A DNA stretch of 64,000 nt, taken from positions 32,001 through 96,000 of IMG/VR virus record IMGVR_UViG_3300021962_000028, one strand, 5' to 3'. Made by a program: the position numbers and the translations under genes. Source of the DNA: a virus. Below the pieces are notes generated by a model that saw only the letters and a program-made list of their open reading frames with translations, did not search any database and was not told the origin of the DNA. Positions 45,199 through 62,152 of this stretch are shown piece by piece (the first letter of the stretch is position 1; every line of letters begins with the position of its first letter).

Positions 45199-45244
45199 TT
45201 TGGATATTTAAAAAACAAATTGTATCTTTGTAATGTTCTTTGAA
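45199..45244 (+). promoter_or_regulatory. Bacteroidota promoter plus boxA-like motif for tmRNA
   Basis: TTTG-N20-TATCTTTG followed by GTTCTTTGAA (45235-45244). Confidence 0.7.
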
Positions 45245-45249
45245 AATAT

Positions 45250-45635
45250 GGGGATGAATGGAATCGATTGGCATTGTTGCGTATCGGTGGCACGTCGGAA
45301 CTGAATTAATTCCGTAAAAACTGATTCAAAACTGTAAACGGCAACGTTTTAGACAAAATGGCTCTATTAGGTCTTGTTAAACAAGATGAGCTTGTTTCTG
45401 TAGCGTAAGCACAAAAACATTCGGGTCGGCGGACTTATAACCTAGGAACAGAAGTCTTTATAGGTGTGGTTTCTATCTTAAAAGGAACAAGTGGAGGATT
45501 AGTTCTCAGTAAACCGAACCACTATAAAATAAGGGAATTGTGAATTTCGGAACATTAGAAAATGTTGACCTAAACGTGTAGTCACTTATATGTGAAGTGA
45601 ACAAGACGAGAGTTCGAATCTCTCCATCTCCACCA
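45250..45635 (+). ncRNA. ssrA: tmRNA; tag frame 45340-45408 (A)GNVLDKMALLGLVKQDELVSVA*
   Basis: 5' GGGGATG pairs with 3' CATCTCC-ACCA including G3:U70; T-arm GAGAG-TTCGAAT-CTCTC; resume context TAAAC-GGC. Confidence 0.93.
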
Positions 45636-48756: not shown

Positions 48757-48786
48757 AAAAAAAAATACGACATTATGTCGTATTTT
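48757..48786 (-). terminator. Intrinsic terminator
   Basis: AAAATACGACA-TTA-TGTCGTATTTT. Confidence 0.75.
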
Positions 48787-49867
48787 AAAGTTTTTCAAAT
48801 TTAGGTTTTAGATATTTCCATATCATATGGTCATATGGTTTTCTATCCCACATTGCAAAACATAGTGATTTAACCTTAGGGTGTACCTTATTAAGTTCTA
48901 AATGTTCCGCAAATTCTTTTTTAGTCGGCTCAACTTCTTTATCCCCATATTTACCATATCTAAAATAATCGTGCATCTTACCTGCGTATTCTGAGTAACG
49001 ATAATGGTTATAATTCAAAGTTGAAACATACTGTTTTACTTTTTTGTAAAATTCGTCAGGAACGTCTTTAAGATAGTCCTCCATTTTACCTCCAGAACTT
49101 AAAACTTCCCAAACACCAGTTGTAGATAGATTAGTCATTATTTTATGAAGACGAAGATATTCTTCACCTTTTATCTTCATTCTATCTCCATTAGAGAATC
49201 TAACGACAAACCCTTCTTTATTATCCGCAATGGCGTGTTTCAAGTAAGTGTAGTCAGAAATTCCATCGTATTTTCTAACAATATTAAATCCTAAGTTGTT
49301 CAGAAGGTTTTTAAACCTAACATCCTCATTATTACCTGAATGGATGTTAACCTCATCACCATCTTTAGTGTGTATCATCCCTAATAATACCAAATCTTCA
49401 AAATCGTAAGAACAAACTATTCTATTTTCAGGATAGATTATCTCAAACAAATAAGTATAGTCAGGGTTTAATCTGTTATAATCGTATTTCTGAAGTAACT
49501 TAGTACCTTTAACCGCTTGGTCAGAAGTAAAAGAACCACGAGTAGCAAGAACCCACTCACCTTTATAGTTGAACAGTATCCCTAAAGAACCATCCATTTT
49601 TTCATAAACATCAAACTCTTCAGTTGGGGTGTGTTGGTTTTCTTCTATGTTAAAAAACTTCTTAAATGGTCTTGCAACGACATTACCTTCATTATCAGTA
49701 ACCAAACCACGGCATTGTTTAGTAACGTCATCCCAAAATTTATATTGGTTGTTACCTTCACCGTATTGAACCTTTGGAGTGTAGTTCCATATAGTCAAAG
49801 GAAGGGTAGGATGCACTTGTTTTTGCACCAACTCTTTCTCATAATATTTGTTCAATTGTTCTAACAT
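48785..49867 (-). CDS. RNA ligase (T4 Rnl1/RnlA-like)
   Basis: CRGLV, RPFKKFFN, EKMDGSLG (motif I), TRGSF, FEII, EGFVV, KIKGEEY. Confidence 0.92.
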   Translation of the reverse strand: MLEQLNKYYEKELVQKQVHPTLPLTIWNYTPKVQYGEGNNQYKFWDDVTKQCRGLVTDNEGNVVARPFKKFFNIEENQHTPTEEFDVYEKMDGSLGILFNYKGEWVLATRGSFTSDQAVKGTKLLQKYDYNRLNPDYTYLFEIIYPENRIVCSYDFEDLVLLGMIHTKDGDEVNIHSGNNEDVRFKNLLNNLGFNIVRKYDGISDYTYLKHAIADNKEGFVVRFSNGDRMKIKGEEYLRLHKIMTNLSTTGVWEVLSSGGKMEDYLKDVPDEFYKKVKQYVSTLNYNHYRYSEYAGKMHDYFRYGKYGDKEVEPTKKEFAEHLELNKVHPKVKSLCFAMWDRKPYDHMIWKYLKPKFEKL

Positions 49868-49894
49868 ACTACAAAGATAATATTTTTTATTTAA

Positions 49895-50131
49895 TTACCA
49901 ACTATCAACGTCGGTTAAATCTAATTCTGTTCTTGTTTTGTGGCTATACACCGCAATTCCACTACCAATACCTGTTGGTGTTATTTTCCAAGTGAATGTA
50001 CCATATTCACCATAAATCGCTTTAATGTGTGATAACCACTCATCATACATTTTCTGTTGTTTCTCGCTGAGCTCCTCGTGTATCACGGTTTTTCTCGTAT
50101 TCTTTCCTCCCATCGCATTTAGTTTTTTCAT
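49895..50131 (-). CDS. Hypothetical protein
   Basis: 78-aa ORF; start uncertain. Confidence 0.6.
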   Translation of the reverse strand: MKKLNAMGGKNTRKTVIHEELSEKQQKMYDEWLSHIKAIYGEYGTFTWKITPTGIGSGIAVYSHKTRTELDLTDVDSW

Positions 50132-50261
50132 TTATATTCCAAAGTTCTTTTCCTCCATTTTTCATATGACAGTTATGGGGTTTATCCATTCGTTTGGAGA
50201 ACCCAACAATCATATCATTATGTTTATTCCTTACAACCCAAGGACATTCTTTACAACTCAT
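50043..50261 (-). CDS. Small Cys/His protein
   Basis: CKECPW...HNCH...C possible Zn site. Confidence 0.55.
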   Translation of the reverse strand: MSCKECPWVVRNKHNDMIVGFSKRMDKPHNCHMKNGGKELWNINEKTKCDGRKEYEKNRDTRGAQRETTENV

Positions 50262-50920
50262 TACCCTACAACCCCCGTTAATTCATCTAAGTGATGGTCG
50301 TTACCAATTTCAGACACTTTGTCTCTGTGACGTAATAATGGAACTACTTCTCTCATAACGTTGTACGGTCTGAACTCAGGGTGTCCATCCATCCCCACAT
50401 CCATACGTTGACCTTTACCAAATCTCAAACTAGTCGGTAGGTGACAATGTCCGTGAAGGTGCATAACACCCTTGTTTAATCCGTCCCAAGAGCTAATTGG
50501 GTAGTGCATCAAACGGAATGTGTGTTCTGCAATTTTCAAAGTGTTATAATGTGAAACACTTTTGAAATAACCTTGGCATCCTTGTCGGTTGTTTTCAATG
50601 TGGTGGTCGTGATTACCAAGAATAAGGTGAATGTTTTTACAAACAATTCGGTCCCAAAATTCTTTAATAGATTCAAACCCACCAAATGACCAGTCTCCAA
50701 GACAGATTAAGATGTCGTCTTGCATAACATTTTCATTAATGTTATTTACGATTGACGCATTCATTTTATCTAACGATTCAAAATCACGAGTCTGTGAAAT
50801 TGGAATCGACCCGTCAGGCATACGCCAATTTGTAGTGCCACGACATATGTTTTTGTGATTGTAATGTGGGTCTGAAAAAATCCACACATTACCTTTAAAA
50901 TCTTTATCTATTTTAATCAT
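50261..50920 (-). CDS. Calcineurin-like metallophosphoesterase
   Basis: SDPH, LGD, GNHD, HYP, HGHCH. Confidence 0.92.
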   Translation of the reverse strand: MIKIDKDFKGNVWIFSDPHYNHKNICRGTTNWRMPDGSIPISQTRDFESLDKMNASIVNNINENVMQDDILICLGDWSFGGFESIKEFWDRIVCKNIHLILGNHDHHIENNRQGCQGYFKSVSHYNTLKIAEHTFRLMHYPISSWDGLNKGVMHLHGHCHLPTSLRFGKGQRMDVGMDGHPEFRPYNVMREVVPLLRHRDKVSEIGNDHHLDELTGVVG

Positions 50921-50921
50921 C

Positions 50922-51383
50922 TTATTCCGCTAATTTCTTATTACTAAATTCTTTAATACCTGTAACCTCATATAATATTTCCTTCTCAATATATCTTGGA
51001 AAACTGATTTTATCGTTTAGGTCTTTTAATTCGACCTCTAAGATTATTATGTTAATTCCGTTATACTTGTCAATCTCAAATTTATGTCCCTTATATTTAA
51101 TTACGGTTCTTGTTTTATTTATATGTAACGAATTACTTAAATTTAATTCATTAAACTCTTCTTGAGTCAATGTTATCTCCTCCTCCTGATTAACACCTTT
51201 AGAGATATTTGTTTTTTTTGTTTTGAATATCTGTACGTCACCTGTAGGGGTCTCAACTTGATATCTATAACGATACCCATCTGAATGATACCACTGTTCA
51301 ATTTGATAAACAGTGTTAATTCTTTCTAATCTTGGGAATCTTTTTAACAAAAATTTTCGTTCTATCTCTTTAAATGTTTTCAT
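50922..51383 (-). CDS. CYTH-domain (triphosphate tunnel) protein
   Basis: EIERKFL, KTR, FEID, LEVE, EVTG. Confidence 0.85.
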   Translation of the reverse strand: MKTFKEIERKFLLKRFPRLERINTVYQIEQWYHSDGYRYRYQVETPTGDVQIFKTKKTNISKGVNQEEEITLTQEEFNELNLSNSLHINKTRTVIKYKGHKFEIDKYNGINIIILEVELKDLNDKISFPRYIEKEILYEVTGIKEFSNKKLAE

Positions 51384-51868
51384 ACTAATTCCATTTCTTT
51401 TTTAAACCATTTAGGTGTTTCTCGATTTTTCCATACCGCGAATCCTGATTTTGCACCAATATAATAATTTCGATACGATTCAACAACGGATTTAACTTTA
51501 TACTCGTCAGGCATTGCTTTTGGTGGTTCAGTAAATCCTTTGTCACAAATGTTTGGTTTATTTGTTACACACCACTCAATCACATCCTGTGATTTATGTC
51601 GTTTTTCATATCGGTAAGTATACTCTTTACACAACTCTAAACCCAGTTCACAAAGATACAAATAATTTGTCAAACTTTCACGAGTCCATATCGCACAAGG
51701 ATGATTTTTATGTGATAATTTGTAAGGAACTTGTGGGGTAACTTGTGGGGTTAAATGGTGAACACCACACAATAATTGAGCGGTTTCAAGTATCATTTTA
51801 ACTACGTGTTTATCACAATGATATTCCGCACATTTTTTTAAATCAAAATCAAGAAAAAATATATTCAT
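51380..51868 (-). CDS. Pyrimidine-dimer DNA glycosylase/DenV-family protein
   Basis: MNIFFLD...HCDKHVVKMILETAQLL, HKNHPC, EYTYRY, YRNYY. Confidence 0.75.
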   Translation of the reverse strand: MNIFFLDFDLKKCAEYHCDKHVVKMILETAQLLCGVHHLTPQVTPQVPYKLSHKNHPCAIWTRESLTNYLYLCELGLELCKEYTYRYEKRHKSQDVIEWCVTNKPNICDKGFTEPPKAMPDEYKVKSVVESYRNYYIGAKSGFAVWKNRETPKWFKKEMELV

Positions 51869-52101
51869 TATGTATTAAATTGTTCCCACCAAGTAGGAAT
51901 GTTAACTAATATGGCAACCTCAACAATTACCATTAAAACTCTACCGAAAGTTGTTGTAAACGCCCACCAATGAAATGGATTAAAGTCCCAAGCTATAAAA
52001 CTACCAAGTAGGTAAAAAATCCCGTTAGCTATTACTAACGGGAGTGTTATCATCCAAATCACTTCTAAAAATGCGTTTATTTTATACTTCAACTTTTCCA
52101 T
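51868..52101 (-). CDS. Small membrane protein
   Basis: Two hydrophobic helices. Confidence 0.7.
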   Translation of the reverse strand: MEKLKYKINAFLEVIWMITLPLVIANGIFYLLGSFIAWDFNPFHWWAFTTTFGRVLMVIVEVAILVNIPTWWEQFNT

Positions 52102-52102
52102 A

Positions 52103-52543
52103 TTATACTGTGTGTTCTATTTGTACTCTAATACAATCTTGAGGTAATCGATTGATATGTCGGTAGTTATTAATATACCCCATCATATTTGCACTGCCAA
52201 TAGCATTCGCAGAGTGGACTACAACGTTCACAACAGGTTTACCGTCCATCCATTGTTCCACTAACCATTTAGTACAATCCATACCTGTTTTTTCGGTGAT
52301 GTTATCGTAGTTCAATTCGTAGTTATGGTAAACATTTTTATGCCACTCCGCCATTGCAGTGTCACCTAAATCGTGGTCCAAAGAAATCAAACTAATATTT
52401 TCCAATCCAATCTCGGTCACTTTTTCTACAAATTCATCGTAAGAACGAACAACAACCCATTGGTCTTTTTCAACAGGAGTTCTTACATCATCCAAATATA
52501 TTCTTTGTTTCATACTATAATTTTTTTTACTAATTTTCTTCAT
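52103..52543 (-). CDS. Cyclic-phosphate-processing receiver-fold (cREC) domain protein
   Basis: IYLDDVR, SLDHDLG, TGMDC, VHSAN..G motifs. Confidence 0.8.
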   Translation of the reverse strand: MKKISKKNYSMKQRIYLDDVRTPVEKDQWVVVRSYDEFVEKVTEIGLENISLISLDHDLGDTAMAEWHKNVYHNYELNYDNITEKTGMDCTKWLVEQWMDGKPVVNVVVHSANAIGSANMMGYINNYRHINRLPQDCIRVQIEHTV

Positions 52544-52559
52544 TTGACAAATATATGGA

Positions 52560-53060
52560 TTAACTACCAACTTTCCAAGCGAAGTTTACAATCTTTCTTT
52601 TTTTAACTGCGTCTTCAGTATTACCAATAACAACACCATCTTTAATTGTAAACGCGTGTCTACTAACACACATAACATAAGTTCCTTTTGGGTATTTTTT
52701 AATAAAAGTACCTACGGTCATTTTACGATTAACTTTCTTACCTTTTACTGTAACAGTATACTCAAGAGTGTTGAAAGACGAATGTTCAATAGGTTTCCCC
52801 ATTTCTTTACAACATTTACGACCAATACGAACACGGTCTTTAGCGAATTTATTCATTCCAGGAATGAATCCAAAAGTACCTTGTCTTGGTTTACGTCCAA
52901 ATTTATCAGCAACAAATTTATGAGCCTTATCATATTCAATATCAAATGCCGATGCTATCGCACGAACAACACAGTCATTAGTTTCAGATTTTGCGATAGA
53001 AGAATTATCATAACCTTTAATCGCTTCGGATGTCTTACAGTATGGTAGTTGATTTTTCAT
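52560..53060 (-). CDS. Hypothetical phage protein (DCVVRA motif)
   Basis: NDCVVRAI...HAFTIKDG; possible Cys-His papain-like fold. Confidence 0.7.
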   Translation of the reverse strand: MKNQLPYCKTSEAIKGYDNSSIAKSETNDCVVRAIASAFDIEYDKAHKFVADKFGRKPRQGTFGFIPGMNKFAKDRVRIGRKCCKEMGKPIEHSSFNTLEYTVTVKGKKVNRKMTVGTFIKKYPKGTYVMCVSRHAFTIKDGVVIGNTEDAVKKRKIVNFAWKVGS

Positions 53061-53105
53061 AAGACAAAGATATGAAGAATATTTTAATTGGCAAAGAAAA
53101 ATATG

Positions 53106-53191
53106 CGGAAGATGAGGGGCTCGAACCCTCGCGACTTTAACATCCTACCTGTTTAGCAAACAGGCCCCTTCACCAACTTGGGTAATCTTCC
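53106..53191 (-). tRNA. tRNA-Ser(GCT)
   Basis: Cloverleaf; CCTGT-TTGCTAA-ACAGG; long variable arm. Confidence 0.92.
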
Positions 53192-53196
53192 AATAG

Positions 53197-53268
53197 TAGT
53201 CCCTGAGGGATTCGAACCCCCACTAAAACATCCGTAGTGTTTCGTGCTCTCCGTTACACCAAGAGACT
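53197..53268 (-). tRNA. tRNA-Arg(ACG)
   Basis: AAACA-CTACGGA-TGTTT; GGTTCGAATCC. Confidence 0.9.
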
Positions 53269-53274
53269 GTACAT

Positions 53275-53478
53275 CTAATTAAAGGTATATTTCATATCTT
53301 CATTAAAGATAAAAACATTACCTTCTTGAGTTATACCTAACTTACTCAAAACAATATTAAATTCTTCTTGAGTGAAAAATTTAGATTGTACCAACCTGTA
53401 ATACGAGTTTAATAAATCAACTATCTCAGGTTCTGAAATTTGATGGGTGTTTAATAATTCATTTAATTTGTCTGTCAT
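53275..53478 (-). CDS. Hypothetical protein (67 aa, MTDKLNELL...)
   Basis: AT-rich 3' part of ORF 53275..53628; start reassigned to 53478. Confidence 0.6.
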   Translation of the reverse strand: MTDKLNELLNTHQISEPEIVDLLNSYYRLVQSKFFTQEEFNIVLSKLGITQEGNVFIFNEDMKYTFN

Positions 53479-53504
53479 ATATTTTAGGATTTTAAGTGTC
53501 AGAA

Positions 53505-53913
53505 TAAAAAGGTCCTGAATCATCCCTCCGCCTTCTGAGGAGAACCTTTTAGTTTTTAGTATAGTTTGGCGTTCATAGTATCCCACACCGATATGACTAA
53601 GATTCGTTAGCCCATAGTAACCATCCACGGTGGGTCTGTACTCTCACCCATATTTCAGGGTTACCCTCAGAACATCTTCACCCTACCCCCAAAGTTACGT
53701 GGCGAGTCTCACTCGGAAGACAGAGTGTGTATTGTAAGATTGTTCAGTGTTCTTACAACTTGTGGATTGTATTACGACTAATTAAAGCCCCTCACCCCCT
53801 TAATCCATAATGGGGAATCCTTGTTTGTTTGTGTAGCCTCCCCCATAGCCTTGAAGCCTTCAAGTCAGGTTCACACTCCATAACGGTAGGATATTTCCGT
53901 TAATCGTGGGGTC
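53505..53913 (-). ncRNA. Unidentified structured RNA(s), ~410 nt
   Basis: GC-enriched non-coding region with many hand-identified helices between tRNA-Ser and the next ORF. Confidence 0.55.
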
Positions 53914-53918
53914 TTTTG

Positions 53919-54003
53919 CGGAGGAAGTAGGATTCGAACCTACGGTACCTTGCGGTACGCTAGTTTTCAAGACTAGTGCAATCGACCACTCTGCCATTCC
54001 TCC
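53919..54003 (-). tRNA. tRNA-Ser(TGA)
   Basis: CTAGT-CTTGAAA-ACTAG; long variable arm. Confidence 0.93.
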
Positions 54004-54005
54004 AA

Positions 54006-54099
54006 TTTAGGTCGTCACGAACCCATCTGTGACTTATTACTAGATACTTGTAGTTTACTTACTATAGTTTAATCCGTTACTACAAGGGAACCCAACCTA
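54006..54099 (-). ncRNA. Unidentified ~93-nt structured RNA
   Basis: Closing stem TAGGTTG/CGACCTA; internal stems CTTGTAGT/ACTACAAG and GTCAC/GTGAC. Confidence 0.55.
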
Positions 54100-54102
54100 T
54101 CG

Positions 54103-54176
54103 GGTGACTAACGGGAATCGAACCCGTGACAACTTGAACCACAATCAAGTGCTCTGCCTACTGAGCTATAGCCACC
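54103..54176 (-). tRNA. tRNA-His(GTG) with G-1
   Basis: CTTGA-TTGTGGT-TCAAG. Confidence 0.93.
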
Positions 54177-54182
54177 ATATTA

Positions 54183-54388
54183 ATCGTTCAATCATTTTTG
54201 ACTGTCCCCAATACCGAATTTCAGCGGCAACTCACTTTTGTGAGGGGTTAGAACTTGTGTGTTAACTTACTCCTGTTACTGGTACACTAACCAACCGACT
54301 TAGACTCAAGTAATCGGCTCAGGTCCCTATGGTTGTAACACCACTTCTCATCATTCGGGAGCAAACTAGTCGTGTACTACTCGACTCG
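54183..54388 (-). ncRNA. Unidentified ~200-nt structured RNA
   Basis: Non-coding and GC-enriched; helices AGTCG/CGACT, TTGCTCC/GGAGTAA, GCCGATT/AGTCGGT, CTCAC/GTGAG. Confidence 0.5.
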
Positions 54389-54390
54389 TG

Positions 54391-54492
54391 TAGTCAGGAC
54401 AGGATTCGAACCTATTCCGTCTTTGCCATAAAGAGTCATCCGTACTGTTACTCAACCTTGGGGAGGTGACACCAACCAATGGTCTCCTGACT
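54391..54492 (-). ncRNA. tRNA-like RNA A (canonical acceptor and T arm, expanded non-canonical anticodon/variable region)
   Basis: AGTCAGG/CCTGACT-A acceptor; ATAGG-TTCGAAT-CCTGT; ~102 nt. Confidence 0.7.
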
Positions 54493-54497
54493 ATTTG

Positions 54498-54631
54498 TAA
54501 TCAAGGTCGGACTCGAACCGAATACCGTTCAAGACGGATTAGACAACCTTACGACTCCATAGACCCCACAAGTGTCTGGGACTATTGGTCTTGGGGACTC
54601 GGGCACCGTCCCTCATTACGCCCACTTGATT
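54498..54631 (-). ncRNA. tRNA-like RNA B (~134 nt with large insertion)
   Basis: AATCAAG/CTTGATT-A acceptor; TCGG-TTCGAGT-CCGA T arm; ~80-nt structured middle. Confidence 0.7.
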
Positions 54632-54706
54632 ATTTACCCCACTTCACCAGGTTAACGGACTGGCTGCCATATGGGAGTGGGGGTTTCCCGTTAATTCGGG
54701 ACTCCG

Positions 54707-54779
54707 TGGAACGGGGCGGAATCGAACCGCCGACACCTTGCTCTTCAGGCAAGTGCTCTACCAACTGAGCTACCGTTCC
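54707..54779 (-). tRNA. tRNA-Phe(GAA)
   Basis: CTTGC-CTGAAGA-GCAAG. Confidence 0.93.
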
Positions 54780-54784
54780 AAGTA

Positions 54785-54921
54785 TGATAATGATGGAGTA
54801 CCCGTCTCGCTCCAATCTTAACTGCTTTCCTGAGTTTTAGGAGGCCTCGGCAGAAAGGGTGATGAACTATTTTTCCATTCGGAATTGTCGACATTCCATT
54901 GAATGGTAAGAACCATTATCA
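54785..54921 (-). ncRNA. Unidentified ~137-nt structured RNA
   Basis: Closing stem TGATAATG/CATTATCA enclosing three hairpins. Confidence 0.55.
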
Positions 54922-54933
54922 ATATTTTAAAAA

Positions 54934-55159
54934 TTGGTGAGACCTTAAGATTTACTCATTCGTGGGTCACCCCATCCGTTCTACCTAGACCTCGCCTTTA
55001 ACATCCGTTCTACCCAAACCATCGTTTTTACCTGTTAACCTTTCGGAAAACTTTGAGTACCTCCTCAATGAGTTAATCTGATAGGGGCTCCATCTTGCTC
55101 GTCATTTCTGACTCCCTATGGGGTTCTGCTGATATAGGTCTATCTGCTATCTTACCAAT
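54934..55159 (-). ncRNA. Unidentified ~226-nt structured RNA
   Basis: Closing stem ATTGGTAAGA/TCTCACCAAT; long helix AGATTAACTCATT/AATGAGTAAATCT; repeated GGTAGAACGGATG. Confidence 0.6.
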
Positions 55160-55166
55160 CTAATTA

Positions 55167-55269
55167 TTCAAAGAACTCTTTTGACAGGGGAGTAGGTCAC
55201 CAACTTACCAACTACCTACCCCCCTTCAACCACATTACAAATGTACGGCAAATTATTTAATTCTCCAAA
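55167..55269 (-). promoter_or_regulatory. Internal promoter, leader hairpin and boxA-like motif
   Basis: TTTG-N20-TACATTTG (55269-55238), GGGGGGTAGGT/ACCTACTCCCC hairpin, GTTCTTTGAA (55176-55167). Confidence 0.6.
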
Positions 55270-55278
55270 CATTTTTTG

Positions 55279-55350
55279 TAGTTCCTGTAGGATTCGAACC
55301 TACGACAACTTGTATGTAAAACAAGGGCTCTTCCACTGAGCTAAGGAACT
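55279..55350 (-). tRNA. tRNA-Val(TAC)
   Basis: CTTGT-TTTACAT-ACAAG. Confidence 0.92.
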
Positions 55351-55356
55351 GTTAAG

Positions 55357-55428
55357 TACCGATGGGAAGAATTGAACTTCCGACACCTTCCGTATGAAAG
55401 AAGTGCTCTACCACTGAGCTACATCGGT
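55357..55428 (-). tRNA. tRNA-Met(CAT), probably elongator
   Basis: CTTCT-TTCATAC-GGAAG; paired 1:72. Confidence 0.85.
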
Positions 55429-55482
55429 ATTTTGGTGGACGTAGACTCATCACCTACTCTTGGGTTTCCACCGAACCCCTTG

Positions 55483-55553
55483 TTGTCCCTGAAGGATTCG
55501 AACCTCCACCGCGTGGACCAAAACCACGTGTCCTGCCATTAGACCAAAGGACA
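55483..55553 (-). tRNA. tRNA-Gln(TTG)
   Basis: CGTGG-TTTTGGT-CCACG. Confidence 0.93.
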
Positions 55554-55609
55554 GTTTGACTGTTTTTCCGATATTTATAGACTGGCATAAACCTTTAATC
55601 AAATTTATA

Positions 55610-55774
55610 ATGACTAAAGAACAAATCCAAGGTATCGTTAGACACGCACTTACTTTTGTGGGTGGTATCCTGATTATGAAAGGTCTTGCAACTGATTCAA
55701 CAGTTCAAGAACTTATCGGAGCTGCAGTTACATTAGTTGGTGGTGTATGGTCAATTATTGCTAAACAGAAATAA
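55610..55774 (+). CDS. Small two-TM holin-like protein
   Basis: MTKEQIQGIVRHALTFVGG...GGVWSIIAK; TATTTATA at 55572; terminator downstream. Confidence 0.7.
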   Translation: MTKEQIQGIVRHALTFVGGILIMKGLATDSTVQELIGAAVTLVGGVWSIIAKQK

Positions 55775-55793
55775 TTGATAACGACCTAATCGA

Positions 55794-55821
55794 AAAAGAG
55801 GGGATTTATATCCCCTTTTTT
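55794..55821 (+). terminator. Intrinsic terminator (possibly bidirectional)
   Basis: AGGGGAT-TTAT-ATCCCCTTTTTT. Confidence 0.8.
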
Positions 55822-55827
55822 ATTTTG

Positions 55828-55908
55828 TGGGAGTGGAGGGATTCGAACCCCCAATGTCGTAAGACCACTGATTTACAGTCAGCTAAGCAACCGTTGCTCA
55901 ACACTCCC
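55828..55908 (-). tRNA. tRNA-Tyr(GTA)
   Basis: GCTGA-CTGTAAA-TCAGT; variable arm. Confidence 0.92.
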
Positions 55909-55911
55909 AAT

Positions 55912-56040
55912 TTAGGAAAACAGAAGATGGTTCAGTGGACATCTGTTTTTACGATTAGCGTTACTCGGGTGAATACCTGCAAACTCCGATTATATTAGTC
56001 AGTATTCACTCTCGAACTATCAATACAATCATTCCCTAAT
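55912..56040 (-). ncRNA. Unidentified ~128-nt structured RNA
   Basis: TTAGGGAA/TTTCCTAA closing stem; GTGAATAC/GTATTCAC; AAACAG/CTGTTT. Confidence 0.5.
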
Positions 56041-56056
56041 CAACCTAATTTTTTTG

Positions 56057-56128
56057 CGGCCAGGGAGAATTACGATATCTCGACCTATCGCTTAACAGGC
56101 GATTGCTCTTCCTCTGAGCTACCTGGCC
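56057..56128 (-). tRNA. tRNA-Asn(GTT), atypical T loop
   Basis: ATCGC-CTGTTAA-GCGAT; T loop ATCGTAA. Confidence 0.85.
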
Positions 56129-56133
56129 ATTTG

Positions 56134-56206
56134 CACGCCTACCAAGATTCGAACTTGGAACAACAGTTTTGGAGACTGTGATGATAAACCGTTTCACCAT
56201 AGACGT
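56134..56206 (-). tRNA. tRNA-Trp(CCA)
   Basis: ACAGT-CTCCAAA-ACTGT. Confidence 0.9.
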
Positions 56207-56211
56207 ATTTG

Positions 56212-56283
56212 AGGTCGGTACAGGAATCGAACCTGTGTAGATAGTTTTGCAGACTATCGCCTAAACCACTCGGCCAACCGACC
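56212..56283 (-). tRNA. tRNA-Cys(GCA)
   Basis: ATAGT-CTGCAAA-ACTAT; U73. Confidence 0.92.
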
Positions 56284-56289
56284 CTATTG

Positions 56290-56364
56290 TGTCCCCGACA
56301 GGACTCGAACCTGTGACTCCCTCATTAAAAGTGAGGTGCTCTAAACCAACTGAGCTACGAAGAC
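56290..56364 (-). tRNA. tRNA-Lys(TTT)
   Basis: CCTCA-CTTTTAA-TGAGG. Confidence 0.93.
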
Positions 56365-56370
56365 ATTAAG

Positions 56371-56444
56371 TTGTCACAGATGGGCTCGAACCATCGACCT
56401 TTCGCGTATCAGGCGAACGCTCTAACCAACTGAGCTATGTGACA
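56371..56444 (-). tRNA. tRNA-Ile(GAT)
   Basis: TTCGC-CTGATAC-GCGAA. Confidence 0.92.
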
Positions 56445-56450
56445 ATGTTG

Positions 56451-56522
56451 TCGGGGTGGCGGGAGTCGAACCCGCCGCCTCGTGTTCCCAAAACACGCGT
56501 CTCTCCTCGAGACTACACCCCG
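56451..56522 (-). tRNA. tRNA-Pro(TGG)
   Basis: CGTGT-TTTGGGA-ACACG; C1:G72, A73. Confidence 0.92.
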
Positions 56523-56562
56523 TTTACTTTTCTTACCAATATGTCAAAGAACACTTTATTAC

Positions 56563-56595
56563 AAAAAAAAATCCTGAACTTTTTGAGTTCAGGAC
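56563..56595 (-). terminator. Attenuator terminator 2
   Basis: TCCTGAACT-CAAAA-AGTTCAGGA-T9 between leader 2 and tRNA-Pro. Confidence 0.9.
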
Positions 56596-56631
56596 TTTGA
56601 TATATTTGTTGTATGTTTTTCTAAAATTACA

Positions 56632-56742
56632 TTACACTAAATCATCATTAACTGAACTTGTATGCGAAATACGCGGATACGAACAATTACTAAATTGTTG
56701 TTTCCAAATCACGACGTTCATATGTTTATTAGTGTTTTTCAT
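56632..56742 (-). CDS. Leader peptide 2, MKNTNKHMNVVIWKQQFSNCSYPRISHTSSVNDDLV (not in ORF track)
   Basis: Manual translation; lies between a consensus promoter and the terminator; codons match the downstream tRNA set. Confidence 0.8.
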   Translation of the reverse strand: MKNTNKHMNVVIWKQQFSNCSYPRISHTSSVNDDLV

Positions 56743-56787
56743 TTTTTCTATTTGTTGTGGTATCTCTACCTGTTTCTATAATTACTA

Positions 56788-56818
56788 CAAAGTTACGAAA
56801 AATTACGTAATTGTCAAA
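56788..56818 (-). promoter_or_regulatory. Bacteroidota promoter for leader 2/tRNA block 2
   Basis: TTTG-N19-TAACTTTG. Confidence 0.8.
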
Positions 56819-56829
56819 TATTTTTTATT

Positions 56830-57414
56830 TTATTTTAAAAAAGATAATACTTTTTCTTTAATACCAGATTGTTTTAACCCTTCATTACCTCTTGGAGTCA
56901 ATACAAAATTTTCTAAACCCCAATCGTGAACCCATTTAATCGAATACGACATCCCTTCTTTACCCATATCAAGGTCGTCGATAGCTACCCACTCAGTAAC
57001 CTCAGGATGATTCTTTAAGTATTGGTTGATTTCCAATGTACGAGTCTGTTCTAAATCCCAATCTCTATTCCAAGGGAACGAACCATCGTAGTTATTACAT
57101 TCACTTAAGTTAGGTGTAAAGGCGATTGGTTTTTTATTAATTCCTTGGGACTCGTAATACTCTCCCATTTCCTCAACGGTACACCATCTTTTCCAATCTG
57201 ATGATACCACAATTTCCGCACCAGTTTTTTCCAAGATTTCGTTAAGAACTTTAATAGCTTTCTTATTGAAATTATCAAAACGGTATTCTAATGGCATTTC
57301 CTTTGGGGTCATTGATAACTTTTGACCGTCCCATTTATTTCGTTTCTTATAACGACCACCCCACTCTGTGGATAAACAGATTACTCCGTCGTGGTCTAAA
57401 AATATAACTTTCAT
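56830..57414 (-). CDS. HAD phosphatase of the Swiss-Army-Knife RNA-repair type
   Basis: MKVIFLDHDGV, IVVSSDWK, RTLEI, WVAIDDLD. Confidence 0.8.
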   Translation of the reverse strand: MKVIFLDHDGVICLSTEWGGRYKKRNKWDGQKLSMTPKEMPLEYRFDNFNKKAIKVLNEILEKTGAEIVVSSDWKRWCTVEEMGEYYESQGINKKPIAFTPNLSECNNYDGSFPWNRDWDLEQTRTLEINQYLKNHPEVTEWVAIDDLDMGKEGMSYSIKWVHDWGLENFVLTPRGNEGLKQSGIKEKVLSFLK

Positions 57415-57686
57415 TTTTTTTCTATTTTTTTTAAAACCATAGACGACCATTTTTGTCTTGGCCCGTTTTTCATTAACACCTCGTTGATAAAAGTCTCAGC
57501 ATCAGGAAGATTGTTGAATTTTAGAACGGTGTTGTAAGACCCACTCTCATAACATTCTTTATACTTTACGTACGACCACCATTTAAACCATAAAAATTTT
57601 TTAGATTCTTTTATACAGAAATGAACTTGGTTACTAATACCATTCTCATTAAAATAATCTTCTCTAATAATCAGGTAACTTTTCAT
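57411..57686 (-). CDS. Hypothetical protein
   Basis: 91-aa ORF; -7 box 4 nt before the ATG. Confidence 0.65.
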   Translation of the reverse strand: MKSYLIIREDYFNENGISNQVHFCIKESKKFLWFKWWSYVKYKECYESGSYNTVLKFNNLPDAETFINEVLMKNGPRQKWSSMVLKKIEKK

Positions 57687-57701
57687 AGTACAAATATACG
57701 A

Positions 57702-57869
57702 CTATTTTTTAATAATATAACCATATTGGTTTAAAATTAGAATAATCCCTAAAATGGATAAACCAAGACAAATTATTTTAACAATAACGTCAATGAATGT
57801 TTTCTTACTCCATATAACCCCAAAGATTAGGAATATAATTGTCGCAATAATATTGAATATAAGTTGCAT
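57702..57869 (-). CDS. Small membrane protein
   Basis: MQLIFNII...; two TM helices; start reassigned so it does not overlap the tRNA. Confidence 0.6.
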   Translation of the reverse strand: MQLIFNIIATIIFLIFGVIWSKKTFIDVIVKIICLGLSILGIILILNQYGYIIKK

Positions 57870-57890
57870 ATTTGTTTTTTTAGATATTTG

Positions 57891-57964
57891 TGGTCCATAC
57901 AGGACTTGAACCTGTGACCTTCTCATTATGAGTGAGCTGCTCTAACCAACTGAGCTAAAGGACC
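57891..57964 (-). tRNA. tRNA-Ile2(CAT, lysidine-type, reads ATA)
   Basis: CTCATAA loop; GGTCCTTTAGCTCAGTTGGTTAGAGCAG body and TTCAAGT T loop resemble ileX-type tRNAs. Confidence 0.75.
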
Positions 57965-57970
57965 TATTTG

Positions 57971-58043
57971 AGCCTCCTGTAGGATTCGAACCTACGACCC
58001 CTTCATTACAAGTGAAGTGCTCTACCAGCTGAGCTAAGGAGGC
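57971..58043 (-). tRNA. tRNA-Thr(TGT)
   Basis: CTTCA-CTTGTAA-TGAAG. Confidence 0.93.
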
Positions 58044-58328
58044 CTATTTAATTTTCTTATATACGTAAGTTATTGTGTCCCCTATTTTGTAGATATCGTC
58101 CCTATCTGTTGAGAATGCTTGTCCGCACTCTGTTTTGTAGTAATATTTTGGAGTTAATTCATTAATTGCCACAGGTTGTTTAACCCAAGAACTATCTATA
58201 ACGCATTTAACAACTTTGTCCCCTGGTTCAATTTTATTTCTATTTTCACACCCTGTTAATACAAAGGCAATAATACCAATTAATAAAAACCAAATAATGG
58301 CAAATACGTACGGTGCGAACTTTTTCAT
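58044..58328 (-). CDS. Putative lipoprotein
   Basis: Hydrophobic signal with LTGC lipobox; VIDSS motif. Confidence 0.7.
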   Translation of the reverse strand: MKKFAPYVFAIIWFLLIGIIAFVLTGCENRNKIEPGDKVVKCVIDSSWVKQPVAINELTPKYYYKTECGQAFSTDRDDIYKIGDTITYVYKKIK

Positions 58329-58347
58329 ATATTATTTTTTTTGTAAT

Positions 58348-58602
58348 TTAAACAACCAAATACTTTATAGAATTTTTTTTAATCCATTCTGAATCATATT
58401 TAAACTCCTTCCAATTGTCGAAGTCCTTAAGTTCTTCTAATACCTCATTAGGTACTAATGTAAACCCTTCAGGTGCAATACCATCAAATTTATGATATGC
58501 AGAATGTTCTATTTTTTCTTTCATCATTTGACAGAATAACTCACTTTTGATAAACTCATTATGTTCTTCTTCAAATACAATATCTTGATTAATATCAACC
58601 AT
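58348..58602 (-). CDS. Hypothetical protein
   Basis: 84-aa ORF. Confidence 0.65.
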   Translation of the reverse strand: MVDINQDIVFEEEHNEFIKSELFCQMMKEKIEHSAYHKFDGIAPEGFTLVPNEVLEELKDFDNWKEFKYDSEWIKKNSIKYLVV

Positions 58603-58617
58603 AATTTCTTAATTTAG

Positions 58618-58689
58618 TAGCCCCACCAAGAATCGAACTTGGAACTAATCTTTAGAAGAGATTCGTTATATCCATTTAACTATGGAGCC
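58618..58689 (-). tRNA. tRNA-Arg(TCT)
   Basis: AATCT-CTTCTAA-AGATT. Confidence 0.92.
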
Positions 58690-58694
58690 ATTTG

Positions 58695-58871
58695 TTAGAC
58701 TTTTTTAACTAAGTAAACGTGACCTGAGTCTGAGTTTTTAGAAAAAATATCTCTCATTTTAATTGCTTCTTCCTCGGTTTCAAATTCCCATATTTCAGAG
58801 TGACCATCTAATATGATAACAGGAACTTTAACTCCGTTAAGACTTTCCATTAATTTTACAATTACCCACAT
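58695..58871 (-). CDS. Small hypothetical protein (58 aa, MWVIVKLMESL...)
   Basis: Manual translation; TAAATTTG -7 box upstream. Confidence 0.6.
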   Translation of the reverse strand: MWVIVKLMESLNGVKVPVIILDGHSEIWEFETEEEAIKMRDIFSKNSDSGHVYLVKKV

Positions 58872-58914
58872 AATATTTTATTTACACTACAAATTTAGTA
58901 AAAATTATCCGAAT

Positions 58915-59076
58915 TTACAAATTAAAACAACTTTTAAGTGAAAATAATATAAAAAAAATTATTACTAACAGAATTGAGTAACCGAAAACTTTATTATTTC
59001 TTTCAACCTTTTCTTTTGAACGACCTTGCCATTCATCAGAATCCCATACTTCAGAATCCCATTCTTCATTTTCCAT
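58915..59076 (-). CDS. Small membrane protein (53 aa, MENEEWDSEVWDSDEWQGR...)
   Basis: Manual translation; C-terminal TM helix. Confidence 0.55.
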   Translation of the reverse strand: MENEEWDSEVWDSDEWQGRSKEKVERNNKVFGYSILLVIIFFILFSLKSCFNL

Positions 59077-59106
59077 ACTTAATAAGTATTACTAAATTTA
59101 TTTGTG

Positions 59107-59178
59107 CGGTCTATGAGGGAATCGAACCCTCCTCACTACCGTGACAGGGTAGCATCCTAGCCGATGAACGAATAGACC
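59107..59178 (-). tRNA. tRNA-Asp(GTC)
   Basis: CTACC-CTGTCAC-GGTAG. Confidence 0.92.
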
Positions 59179-59186
59179 AATTTTTG

Positions 59187-59259
59187 CGGTCCCGACGGGA
59201 TTCGAACCCGTACCTCGCACCGTGACAGGGTGGAATTGTAACCATTCAACCACGGGACC
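59187..59259 (-). tRNA. tRNA-Asp(GTC), second divergent copy
   Basis: CCACC-CTGTCAC-GGTGC. Confidence 0.9.
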
Positions 59260-59265
59260 TTTTTG

Positions 59266-59338
59266 AGCGGAAGACGGGACTCGAACCCGCAACCCCCGAC
59301 TTGGAAGGACGGTGCTCTACCAATTGAGCTACTTCCGC
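59266..59338 (-). tRNA. tRNA-Gly(TCC)
   Basis: CCGTC-CTTCCAA-GTCGG; U73. Confidence 0.93.
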
Positions 59339-59418
59339 ATTTTTGGGTAGAATCAGACGCGTTCTGTCTACCGAGACCTCGTCGTTAACTTTCGTCAGAG
59401 CGGACCGAGACACTTTTG

Positions 59419-59492
59419 TTGCGGGTGAGGGACTCGAACCCCCGTCTTTGGCTTATGAGACCAAGCTGGAACCACCTCCAGTCTAACCCACG
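59419..59492 (-). tRNA. tRNA-Met(CAT), initiator-like (C1:A72)
   Basis: TTGGT-CTCATAA-GCCAA; C1xA72 mismatch. Confidence 0.8.
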
Positions 59493-59503
59493 ATATATTA
59501 TTT

Positions 59504-59593
59504 GTTATCACTTCAGCCACATCGTGAAAGCCGCCCCTCACGCGTTGTTTAAAGGAATCCGATTGCGGCCTCATCCTACTGAGTTATGATAAC
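59504..59593 (-). ncRNA. Unidentified ~90-nt structured RNA
   Basis: GTTATCA/TGATAAC closing stem with two internal hairpins. Confidence 0.55.
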
Positions 59594-59597
59594 TTTG

Positions 59598-59669
59598 TTG
59601 CGGGAGGAGGATTCGAACCTCCGACCTCAAGGTTATGAGCCTTGCGAGCTACCACTGCTCTATCCCGCG
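59598..59669 (-). tRNA. tRNA-fMet(CAT)
   Basis: CGCGGGA...; C1xA72; CAAGG-CTCATAA-CCTTG. Confidence 0.9.
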
Positions 59670-59675
59670 ATGTTG

Positions 59676-59749
59676 TGGAGATGGTGAGAATCGAACTCAC
59701 CCCAGATTGATTGCAAATCATTCTCGTCGGCCTTGAGACATACACCCCC
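59676..59749 (-). tRNA. tRNA-Ala(TGC), atypical D arm
   Basis: G3:U70 acceptor GGGGGTG/CATCTCC-A; loop TTTGCAA. Confidence 0.8.
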
Positions 59750-59756
59750 ATTTTTA

Positions 59757-60020
59757 TTATGAATACTTTTTAGCGATATTCATAATAGTATCTTCATCTT
59801 CTTTACTCATTCTATGATAAGAATTTGCTAAAACATCACAATAATCCCTATGAGTTTCCTCAATTAGTGTATATTGATTTGGTTTACCAGGACCCTTACT
59901 ATTTTTAGTTAAGTGACCTCTTTCGATTAATTCATCAATTAATTCATTAATTTCACTTTTAGAGCATTCATCAATAAATTCATAAACCTCTAAATCAATG
60001 TAAGTGCTAAATTCAGGCAT
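59757..60020 (-). CDS. Hypothetical protein
   Basis: 87-aa ORF. Confidence 0.65.
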   Translation of the reverse strand: MPEFSTYIDLEVYEFIDECSKSEINELIDELIERGHLTKNSKGPGKPNQYTLIEETHRDYCDVLANSYHRMSKEDEDTIMNIAKKYS

Positions 60021-60040
60021 AATAGTTATTTTTAAGTTTG

Positions 60041-60112
60041 TAGTCCCTACGGGAATCGAACCCGTCTTTTATCCGTGAAAGGGATATGTCCTAACCGATA
60101 GACGAAGGGACC
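60041..60112 (-). tRNA. tRNA-Glu(TTC)
   Basis: TATCC-CTTTCAC-GGATA. Confidence 0.93.
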
Positions 60113-60170
60113 ATTTTTAAATCTTTTACAAAGATACAACCAATATTTCAAAGAACAAAATTTTACAAAT

Positions 60171-60200
60171 AAAAAAACCCATCTCTTTTGGAGATGGGTT
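60171..60200 (-). terminator. Attenuator terminator 1
   Basis: AACCCATCTC-CAAAA-GAGATGGG-T7. Confidence 0.9.
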
Positions 60201-60224
60201 CAGTGAATTCATAGTATAGGAATA

Positions 60225-60299
60225 TCACACCATCTCCATTGGAGTAGTCGCTTCAGTTCTATCTGTCCCGCCTATTAGTATGATATGTATTGTTTTCAT
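60225..60299 (-). CDS. Leader peptide 1, MKTIHIILIGGTDRTEATTPMEMV (not in ORF track)
   Basis: Manual translation; 3' end complementary to the terminator 5' arm; codons match the downstream tRNA set. Confidence 0.8.
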   Translation of the reverse strand: MKTIHIILIGGTDRTEATTPMEMV

Positions 60300-60322
60300 T
60301 TGCAGTTTTACTTGTTTTTTAT

Positions 60323-60353
60323 TAAATATACGTATGTAACGTAAAAAGTCAAA
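60323..60353 (-). promoter_or_regulatory. Promoter for leader 1/tRNA block 1
   Basis: TTTG-N19-TATATTTA (one mismatch to TAnnTTTG). Confidence 0.6.
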
Positions 60354-60361
60354 TTTTATTT

Positions 60362-62152
60362 TTAAAAATTAAATCCTCCCCCTCTTTTTGTGTTAATTCC
60401 ACTTGTTCTACCCGTCTTTTTACCAGATGGGACGGTATATGGTATTACAACATCTCTACTATTCTGTCTTTTTTGGTCAATTAAATCCTTGTCAATTTTT
60501 TTAACAACTTTTTTATCGGACAATAATGATAAAATATTCTTACGAATATCTTCTACCGTACTATTATCTGACTTTTCAATTGATTTAGATGTAGCTTCAT
60601 TATTAGTATTGACTAACTTACTATCGGTATCTACAAACGTATTTTTAGAATAAACTTGTTTTAACGTATCAATAGTACTGTGTTGGGGGGTATCAATTAC
60701 GGGTTTAGTGGCCGTATTATAATAATAATTGATTTTACCGATGTCAGTTTTAGGGTAAATTCTAATAAAGGTAGAAGTCTTTAATTCATCTAATGGTCCA
60801 AAATTTGTTTTTGAATTTGTTAACTCAATATAATGTTTTCGTAATTTAGAACCATAGTTAGTTTCAGGATTAGTCGTTAATCCATTTTCGTGAATTCTTC
60901 GATAAAATAATGTTTCCTCAATTCGTTTAAAGGTCACACCATTTTTTTGGGTTCTAACCATAAAATCCGAATCTGCCGCACATCTCCAACCCTCAAAACC
61001 ATTAAAATGGTGAAAAATATGTTTTCTAATTCCAAAAACCCCTTCACCAAATAAATTAGAATATGTTTTATATTTTGGGTCATCGTAATTAATTTCTTCT
61101 TTAAAGTCGTGATACATAGGTTTAACACATTCATAATCAGTAAGGGTATTAATTATCTTGAAAACCATATCATCCGACATAACATCGTCAGAATCAAAAA
61201 ATATTAAATTTTCTGTTTTAGAAATTTTTGACAATGTATTCTTAATAACATAAGGACCAACATTTTCTTCAAAGTAAAATAACTTAATTCTAAAATCGAA
61301 TATGTTTTCTCGCACAAACTTTAAAGTTTTTTCACATTTATCAATTCCAACTAAGATTTCAAAGTTTTGTAATTGATTACAAGAATTAACTACAGAATCT
61401 AAACATTCTTTTAAAAAGTCCACATTATTAAATGTTGGTATAATAACCGAAACTTCTTTATCCAAATAGGATTCGTTAGTAAGGGTTGTTTGAATAAAAT
61501 CGGAACGTAAATCTTTTTCATAGATAGACCCTTCAAAATTTTGTTGGGTAACGTATCCGCTATTATGTTTTGCACATATAATATCAATGTTATTTTCTTT
61601 AGCATATTTACCAATCCATACATCCGCCATATTTGGTCTATCAAAATATTCTATTGGAACTTTAAATAAATCAGTATGGAAACACATAACACCTGTCCCA
61701 CCAAATTGAACTTTAGTATCTTGAGATAAAAGTTGTTTAAAGTGGTATACTGAAGTATTACGTCCATAAAAACTATTAATAGGAAATGAGTTAAATGTTC
61801 GAGCGTGTAAAGTAATAATCGACTTCCTTTTATATTGATTAACCTTATCAATCATATATTCAGTGTAGTTTTCAGGGTAAATTAAGTCGTCATCTATGGT
61901 GAAAAAATACCCGTCGGAATTCATTAAATTATAAAATTTATAAGCATCCCCTCTATCATTATCCGAAATAAATAAATTTATTTTTTTATCATACAGTTCA
62001 GGTGGAATCTCGGTATAATCATTTAATGCTACATTTATAATGTCAGATTGATTATAAATCGATTCAATAGTTTTAATCAGAGTATCCCCTCTTTTATAAC
62101 TGGCGACATTATATATTACTTTATCCATACTTTTTTTAAAATTATATTGCAA
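60362..62152 (-). CDS. Two-domain GT-A/GT2 glycosyltransferase
   Basis: FTIDDDLIYP; VSVIIPTFN, FFDSDD, AADSDF. Confidence 0.85.
   Translation of the reverse strand: MQYNFKKSMDKVIYNVASYKRGDTLIKTIESIYNQSDIINVALNDYTEIPPELYDKKINLFISDNDRGDAYKFYNLMNSDGYFFTIDDDLIYPENYTEYMIDKVNQYKRKSIITLHARTFNSFPINSFYGRNTSVYHFKQLLSQDTKVQFGGTGVMCFHTDLFKVPIEYFDRPNMADVWIGKYAKENNIDIICAKHNSGYVTQQNFEGSIYEKDLRSDFIQTTLTNESYLDKEVSVIIPTFNNVDFLKECLDSVVNSCNQLQNFEILVGIDKCEKTLKFVRENIFDFRIKLFYFEENVGPYVIKNTLSKISKTENLIFFDSDDVMSDDMVFKIINTLTDYECVKPMYHDFKEEINYDDPKYKTYSNLFGEGVFGIRKHIFHHFNGFEGWRCAADSDFMVRTQKNGVTFKRIEETLFYRRIHENGLTTNPETNYGSKLRKHYIELTNSKTNFGPLDELKTSTFIRIYPKTDIGKINYYYNTATKPVIDTPQHSTIDTLKQVYSKNTFVDTDSKLVNTNNEATSKSIEKSDNSTVEDIRKNILSLLSDKKVVKKIDKDLIDQKRQNSRDVVIPYTVPSGKKTGRTSGINTKRGGGFNF

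Follow-up and report, generated by a model that had tools for sequence, protein, structure and literature searches.

A leader region lying 5′ of a tRNA array on the minus strand of the window—that is, the whole 64,000-nucleotide stretch of viral DNA analyzed—is very likely a ribosome-mediated transcription attenuator, acting as multi-input (OR-gate) feedback on phage tRNA supply. Its anatomy, its mutually exclusive helices and their covariation, and a matching of leader codons to the downstream tRNA block, together with the position of this matching within the leader, were all observed. A preliminary description of this DNA did not mention the correspondence between the leader codons and the anticodons of the downstream block, and it is this match that makes the attenuator unusual.

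The virus record is 158.6 kb long and contains, over its whole length, 28 tRNA genes and a tmRNA gene, with 25 of the tRNA genes forming the array (window 53105-60112, minus strand). Its capsid protein is T4-like, the best cultured-phage matches being Microcystis phage Mel-JY01 and Flavobacterium phage immuto (42%). The promoter pattern TTTG-N19-TAnnTTTG has 15 matches in the window versus 4.6 ± 2.1 by chance, an enrichment that, taken with the known sigma-A consensus, points by inference to a Bacteroidota host. RNA-repair-type genes (T4 RNA ligase family, metallophosphoesterase, cREC_REC, and HAD_SAK_2) are found around and within the array on the same strand. The gene 5′ of the leader promoter ends at 60362, in a neighborhood of glycosyltransferase genes. 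The minus strand, read 5′ to 3′, presents the promoter P1, the leader ORF, the antiterminator strand, the terminator, the boxA-like element with P2, and then tRNA-Glu (60112), as follows:

60323..60353, minus strand: predicted leader promoter P1, of the Bacteroidota sigma-A type (TTTG at 60353-50, N19, then TATATTTA at 60330-23)
60225..60299, minus strand: leader ORF, 24 codons and TGA, with an A-rich initiation region lacking a Shine-Dalgarno sequence
60276..60286, minus strand: possible segment 1 (protector or pause hairpin), pairing with 60232-60222 in the minimum-energy fold; weak
60230..60238, minus strand: antiterminator strand (segment 2) in leader codons 21-24, assigned from pairing and covariation
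60167..60201, minus strand: intrinsic terminator (segments 3:4 and U-tract), an 11-pair hairpin (60201-60175) followed by a U-run
60140..60156, minus strand: boxA-like element, a 17-mer identical to one in Bacteroidota rRNA spacers
60129..60159, minus strand: probable downstream promoter P2 (TTTG-N19-TATCTTTG), a consensus site
57890..60112, minus strand: tRNA block 1, 10 tRNAs with small ORFs in between
48785-52570 and 56830-57450, array strand (minus): RNA-repair-type genes, assigned from family matches

Block 1, counted as far as the next leader at 56742, encodes Glu(TTC), Ala(TGC), two fMet-type CAT tRNAs, Gly(TCC), Asp(GTC) twice, Arg(TCT), Thr(TGT), and an Ile2-type CAT tRNA. Assignment of the CAT tRNAs rests on sequence heuristics alone, but the counterpart of this block in relatives includes an explicit Ile(TAT) tRNA. 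A further promoter lies inside the block at 58921-58890. The first of the two initiator-type CAT tRNAs (59418-59492 and 59597-59669) has an unusual D-arm and scores only 38 bits in Rfam. Elsewhere in the array, the minus-strand tRNA spacers at 53500-55240 and 59340-59410 are GC-rich and apparently structured, without an Rfam match, and some have ends resembling a T-arm (near 54520 and 54410) without a tRNA call; they are possibly stable RNAs or decayed tRNAs. A 72-aa hydrophobic ORF (55556-55774, plus strand) runs antisense within tRNA block 2 and has its own terminator near 55816.

P1 consists of a -7 box and an upstream -33-like element, can alternatively be scored as TTGACT-16-TATATT, and has a layout that recurs 5′ of every family member. 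The leader ORF reads exactly as the 24 codons and TGA listed in the preliminary description, all of whose coordinates held on re-checking, and the ORF and its promoter are kept in 23 aligned relatives. No match for the ORF was found in NCBIfam, and Rfam searches over the leader region gave nothing at the gathering score and only chance-level matches at E up to 10. Contigs assembled from public runs of mixed samples were excluded from the evidence for termination or read-through: one from a lake metatranscriptome (a small share) covers 60266-60172 and ends at the U-tract but cannot show an RNA end, and another, whose library type is unknown, extends over 60319-60097 but cannot show read-through.

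The last leader codons had been described as exactly complementary to the terminator 5′ arm and loop, and TGGAGATGG (60238-60230) and CCATCTCCA (60197-60189) do form nine perfect pairs, the latter segment being both terminator arm and loop and antiterminator partner. The further extension of this helix (60228-60220/60210-60203) was likewise confirmed and forms part of the minimum-energy nascent-RNA fold, but it is restricted to the closest relatives (L001 and L132) and does not overlap the terminator. The 161-nt region folds with z = -5.1 relative to shuffles. Across the 23 aligned family members, pairing in the 8-bp antiterminator core is 95.7%, and 4/8 pairs show compensatory change; none of 500 shuffles was as good, and slid controls were 43-65% paired. 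Compensatory change was also seen in 4/10 terminator pairs. These compensatory changes stem from few lineages. In L098, the stop codon is shifted upstream and the antiterminator strand is retained after it, that is, outside the ORF; the constraint thus acts on the RNA. The leader/terminator complementarity is general over 43 families, with a duplex energy of -12.0 kcal/mol for a leader's own terminator versus -7.1 kcal/mol for swapped ones. The segment 1:2 pairing forms a -12 kcal/mol duplex that is 85% paired in the family, with covariation not above shuffles. In L121, L123, L126, and L128, what precedes a near-identical terminator is the end of a long gene, not a short leader, and a promoter and tRNA-Phe come after it; the cases of L121 and L128 were counted against the attenuator reading.

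Predicted folding indicates when the two helices would form. For nascent RNA cut at 60188-60182, the minimum-energy fold is the antiterminator, and from 60179 on it is the terminator. With the ribosome footprint masked, the antiterminator has a probability of about 1.0 in nascent RNA for A-site positions at codons 2-18/19, and cannot form for those from codon 19/20 to the stop. This footprint model agrees with the logic originally suggested—a ribosome at the stop giving OFF, and stalling in the ATA...GCG core giving ON—for a helix that covaries in relatives. The switching is, however, confined to nascent RNA: the full-length RNA at equilibrium has no ON state at any ribosome position (-12.3 kcal/mol for the 9-bp antiterminator versus -16.4 kcal/mol for the terminator), and the switch can therefore only be kinetic. 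Kinetic trapping, with the antiterminator forming first and surviving until the polymerase has passed the U-tract, is plausible but not shown. Naked nascent RNA also forms the antiterminator at equilibrium, such that the OFF state needs timely arrival of the ribosome; a polymerase pause has not been shown.

In the proposed mechanism, host RNA polymerase would initiate at P1, and a ribosome would translate the leader on the nascent RNA. When the tRNAs for ATA, GGN, GAY, AGR, GAR, GCN, and ACN are all plentiful and charged, the ribosome would reach codons 20-25 and cover 60238-30, upon which the terminator would fold and the RNA would end near 60170 (OFF, save for basal transcription from P2 and the internal promoter). 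When any one of these tRNAs is scarce, the ribosome would lag at codons up to 18 and leave the antiterminator strand free; this strand would capture the terminator 5′ arm ahead of synthesis of the 3′ arm, permitting read-through via the boxA-like element into block 1 (ON). Synthesis of the block 1 tRNAs would then restore decoding and close the loop, one leader serving as an OR gate over seven tRNA types. Leader translation, its coupling to transcription, the kinetics, the function of the boxA-like element, and the trigger are inferred, without any experiment.

Each of the seven elongator tRNA types of block 1 has a cognate codon among leader codons 2-18, 5′ of the antiterminator strand, and a random gene segment of equal length would match the block as well with P = 7e-5. 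This sensing zone contains Ile-ATA three times, Gly twice, Thr four times, and Asp, Arg-AGA, Glu, and Ala-GCG, in addition to Lys, His, Ile-ATC, and Leu-CTA; the last four, out of 17 codons, have no tRNA in block 1, which counts against the attenuator reading. Two further units were found in the same genome:

56544..56818, minus strand: attenuator 2 (sister unit), with promoter, 36-codon leader (56742-56632), terminator, and boxA-like element
G000 96305-96465, plus strand, about 300 bases past the window end: third unit, with a 34-codon leader containing five Leu codons

Attenuator 2 lies at the end of block 1 and at the head of the 15-tRNA block 2, lacks a downstream promoter, and has a leader with a codon for 15/15 tRNA classes of that block. 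It uses CGT and ATT, and the block 1 leader uses AGA and ATA, not CGN. The third unit has a strand complementary to the terminator arm and is followed by an HNH-like gene, tRNA-Leu(TAA), and tRNA-Leu(TAG); taken by itself, its codon match falls short of significance (P about 0.08). The leader at 60299-60225 has no TTA/TTG codon, whereas several such codons occur in the leaders of those relatives in which this block retains tRNA-Leu(TAA).

Relatives were collected from viral contigs by neighboring proteins, the boxA-like motif, and terminator patterns, and units, defined as a short ORF and a terminator 5′ of tRNA genes, were extracted without regard to tRNA identity, giving 75 distinct leaders in 43 families. 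Doubtful units (L016) were left in the statistics, and the start-site filter was relaxed, its stricter form excluding the leader at 60299-60225. The families are mutually related, so that the P values below overstate independence, and their arrangements differ in at least five ways. For seven neighboring block pairs, tRNA classes exclusive to one block were represented in its own leader in 122/123 cases and in the other leader in 19/123. Recall was 0.935 with the true leaders and 0.77 ± 0.02 after swapping leaders over families, precision being 0.78 and 0.54 ± 0.03, respectively; 0/20,000 permutations reached the observed value. Matching extends to isoacceptors, codon choice following the tRNA in the block for Arg (AGR/CGN, p = 0.024) and Ile (ATA/ATY, p = 0.013). 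It is also concentrated where a stalled ribosome would matter, at 311/388 (80%) 5′ of the antiterminator strand versus 119/209 (57%) within and after it (p = 4e-9). Glu, Asn, Pro, Leu, and Thr tRNAs occupy different blocks among phages, and the leaders change accordingly. A search with a strict leader DNA pattern gave no matches, and one with the first ten leader codons only gave 24 loci, 23 of them family members; a terminator was present in these 23 wherever DNA was available, and those with enough DNA led into a Leu/Ile/Gly/Glu/Asp-type tRNA block. In Flavobacterium phage immuto, no such unit was found directly 5′ of the three tRNAs examined, DNA further upstream being outside the scope.

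Exact Watson-Crick codon/anticodon matches are not enriched in the leaders (217 versus 251 expected). Wobble-read NNG codons make up 124/250 versus 21%, and NNC codons are not clearly enriched (37 families). The preferred NNG codons, namely Pro CCG, Thr ACG, Ser TCG, Val GTG, and Ala GCG, are read by the U34 tRNAs of the arrays via wobble. This preference may sensitize the sensor or report U34 modification. A His codon occurs at codons 3-8 in 26/43 families and at codons 9-14 in none, including where the block has no tRNA-His, and remains unexplained; that of the leader at 60299-60225 is at window 60287-60285.

Two codon-matched leader/terminator units, each behind a near-identical promoter stretch, were also found in Cellulophaga phage phi4:1 (NC_021788; L350:4172-4298 and L350:5132-5270). 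A 22-codon leader and terminator precede tRNAs for Pro, Glu, Gln, His, Leu, Leu, and Arg(ACG), with a codon for all seven. A 27-codon leader with a GTG start, again with a terminator, precedes Ala, Lys, Ile, Gly, Asp, Thr, Val, Arg(TCT), Ile2-type, and Tyr. Each of these 10 has a codon in the leader, and the four tRNAs at the end of the block, Ser, Asn, Trp, and Phe, have none. Since phi4:1 is cultured and has two such units, the system is testable.

As to what the switch senses, the most likely trigger, by inference, is loss of usable host tRNA during infection, which fits with the isoacceptor match, the NNG enrichment, the neighboring repair genes, and the view that phage tRNAs counter tRNA-depleting host systems such as PrrC, VapC, and retron Ec78 (PMC10264068). 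Whether the leaders constitute a widespread counter-defense circuit—a wobble-biased codon inventory per block that detects the loss of any host isoacceptor, for instance to an anticodon nuclease, induces replacement tRNAs, and is rewritten as tRNAs change block—is a proposition for which the chances are about even. It is possible, if rather unlikely, that the same RNA switch answers to another signal, either amino-acid starvation or generally slow or uncoupled translation due to ribosome shortage, antibiotics, or late infection. Any stall at codons up to 18 would give the ON state, as would untranslated nascent RNA at equilibrium; classical attenuators are established to sense aminoacylation; and non-block codons, including the recurrent early His, occur in the sensing window. 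A long tRNA array in Anabaena is likewise induced by general translational stress (PMC10272220). A general sensor, however, would not require its leader to match its own block, yet the leaders have been rewritten as tRNAs changed block and track the Arg and Ile isoacceptors, and the NNG bias is what a sensor of U34 tRNA supply should show. As for amino-acid starvation, extra tRNA would presumably be no cure for a missing amino acid.

A different doubt concerns how much the attenuator contributes at the studied locus. Of 122 matches to the 17-mer of the boxA-like element, 52 lie, as judged by rRNA motifs, in the rRNA spacer of Bacteroidota genomes, with about 17 more just after tRNA-Ala. The rRNA spacer is the usual place of boxA in rrn operons. 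The interpretation of the 17-mer as an rrn-type antitermination signal rests on this match in position, with NusB-S10 binding and processivity being inferred. The tmRNA gene (45199-45635, plus strand) has no leader; 5′ of it lies a Bacteroidota promoter, followed by this same boxA-like motif. P2 is, judging from its sequence, probably real, and would give basal, attenuator-independent expression, as the preliminary description cautioned. That caution is fair: P2 matches the promoter consensus and recurs in L034, L084, L106, L122, and others, and P2 and the promoter at 58921-58890 could supply block 1 without read-through, which counts against the attenuator reading. These promoters might then make most of the block 1 tRNA, and the terminator, which is thermodynamically dominant and is the only one predicted near the end of the upstream gene, might mainly insulate the array from the glycosyltransferase genes. 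This explanation is improbable, since this locus has kept its leader, its antiterminator, and its codon match alike. Nor does P2 render the attenuator redundant: in L091 and L347, the first tRNA has no P2 ahead of it, a -7 box between terminator and first tRNA is present in 19/43 families and absent in 24/43, and the boxA-like element lies 5′ of the P2 -7 box and start (in the studied genome, L001, and L132), so that only read-through RNA from P1 carries it. That the ORF merely encodes a functional small peptide or arose by chance, with the complementarity a by-product of a local repeat of the terminator 3′ arm, can hardly be maintained: short AT-rich ORFs are common and the strand at 60237-30 necessarily resembles that arm, but this reading is largely refuted by the three-way compensatory change, by the strand kept outside the ORF in L098, and by the block-matching statistics over 43 families, in which unrelated peptides share the same layout and block-matched content.

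The leader region meets the criteria for an attenuator, namely a short ORF between promoter and genes, an upstream intrinsic terminator, a conserved and mutually exclusive antiterminator, and suitably placed control codons; it satisfies every testable feature of the trp/his/thr/ilv mechanism except a proven pause hairpin. Classical and multivalent attenuators include E. coli trpL, hisL, and pheL, thrL (Thr and Ile), the ilvGMEDA leader (Ile/Leu/Val), and pheM before pheST. The pheL leader-peptide attenuator has been described (PMC3082878). The phage system shares with them a promoter, a short leader ORF, exclusive antiterminator and terminator helices, control by ribosome position, and several inputs per leader. 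Unlike them, it controls tRNA genes rather than biosynthesis or synthetase genes, allots roughly a single codon to each of 7-20 tRNA types where they have runs for 1-3 amino acids, matches at the isoacceptor level, and has a boxA-like element 3′ of the terminator. An amino-acid biosynthesis attenuator in the narrow sense was rejected on the grounds that the downstream genes are tRNAs, that the seven classes are mostly represented by single codons, and that no Rfam or NCBIfam leader matched. T-box riboswitches bind uncharged tRNA directly, without translation. They resemble the phage switch in their tRNA-specific terminator/antiterminator control and differ in that the latter relies on translation; a T-box was rejected, there being no Rfam match at the gathering score or at E up to 10. 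The trn operon of Anabaena PCC 7120, a 26-gene tRNA array on a plasmid repressed by TrcR (PMC8421152, PMC10272220), is also a long accessory array kept low and induced under translational stress, but its DNA-binding repressor acts at initiation without tRNA specificity, and it is not of a phage. The words "attenuat" and "leader" are absent from the text of PMC8421152. Counter-defense against tRNA-depleting host systems is the likely purpose of the phage switch, RNA-repair-type genes occurring at the array studied here; the study of such phage tRNAs describes no regulation by attenuation ("attenuat" having 0 occurrences in PMC10264068). No paper on attenuation of tRNA genes was found, most subscription papers being outside the scope, and novelty is thus unproven.

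Overall, the finding bears on the long-standing question of why phages carry tRNA arrays, whether for codon compensation or for replacing host-destroyed tRNAs. Ribosome-mediated attenuation would be extended from enzyme operons to tRNA genes, with 7-20 inputs per leader, and the attenuator provides a compact genetic means of reporting tRNA depletion. Feedback switching of this inducible, tRNA-specific kind favors on-demand replacement, and the question becomes directly testable, as each leader predicts which tRNA losses would induce which block.
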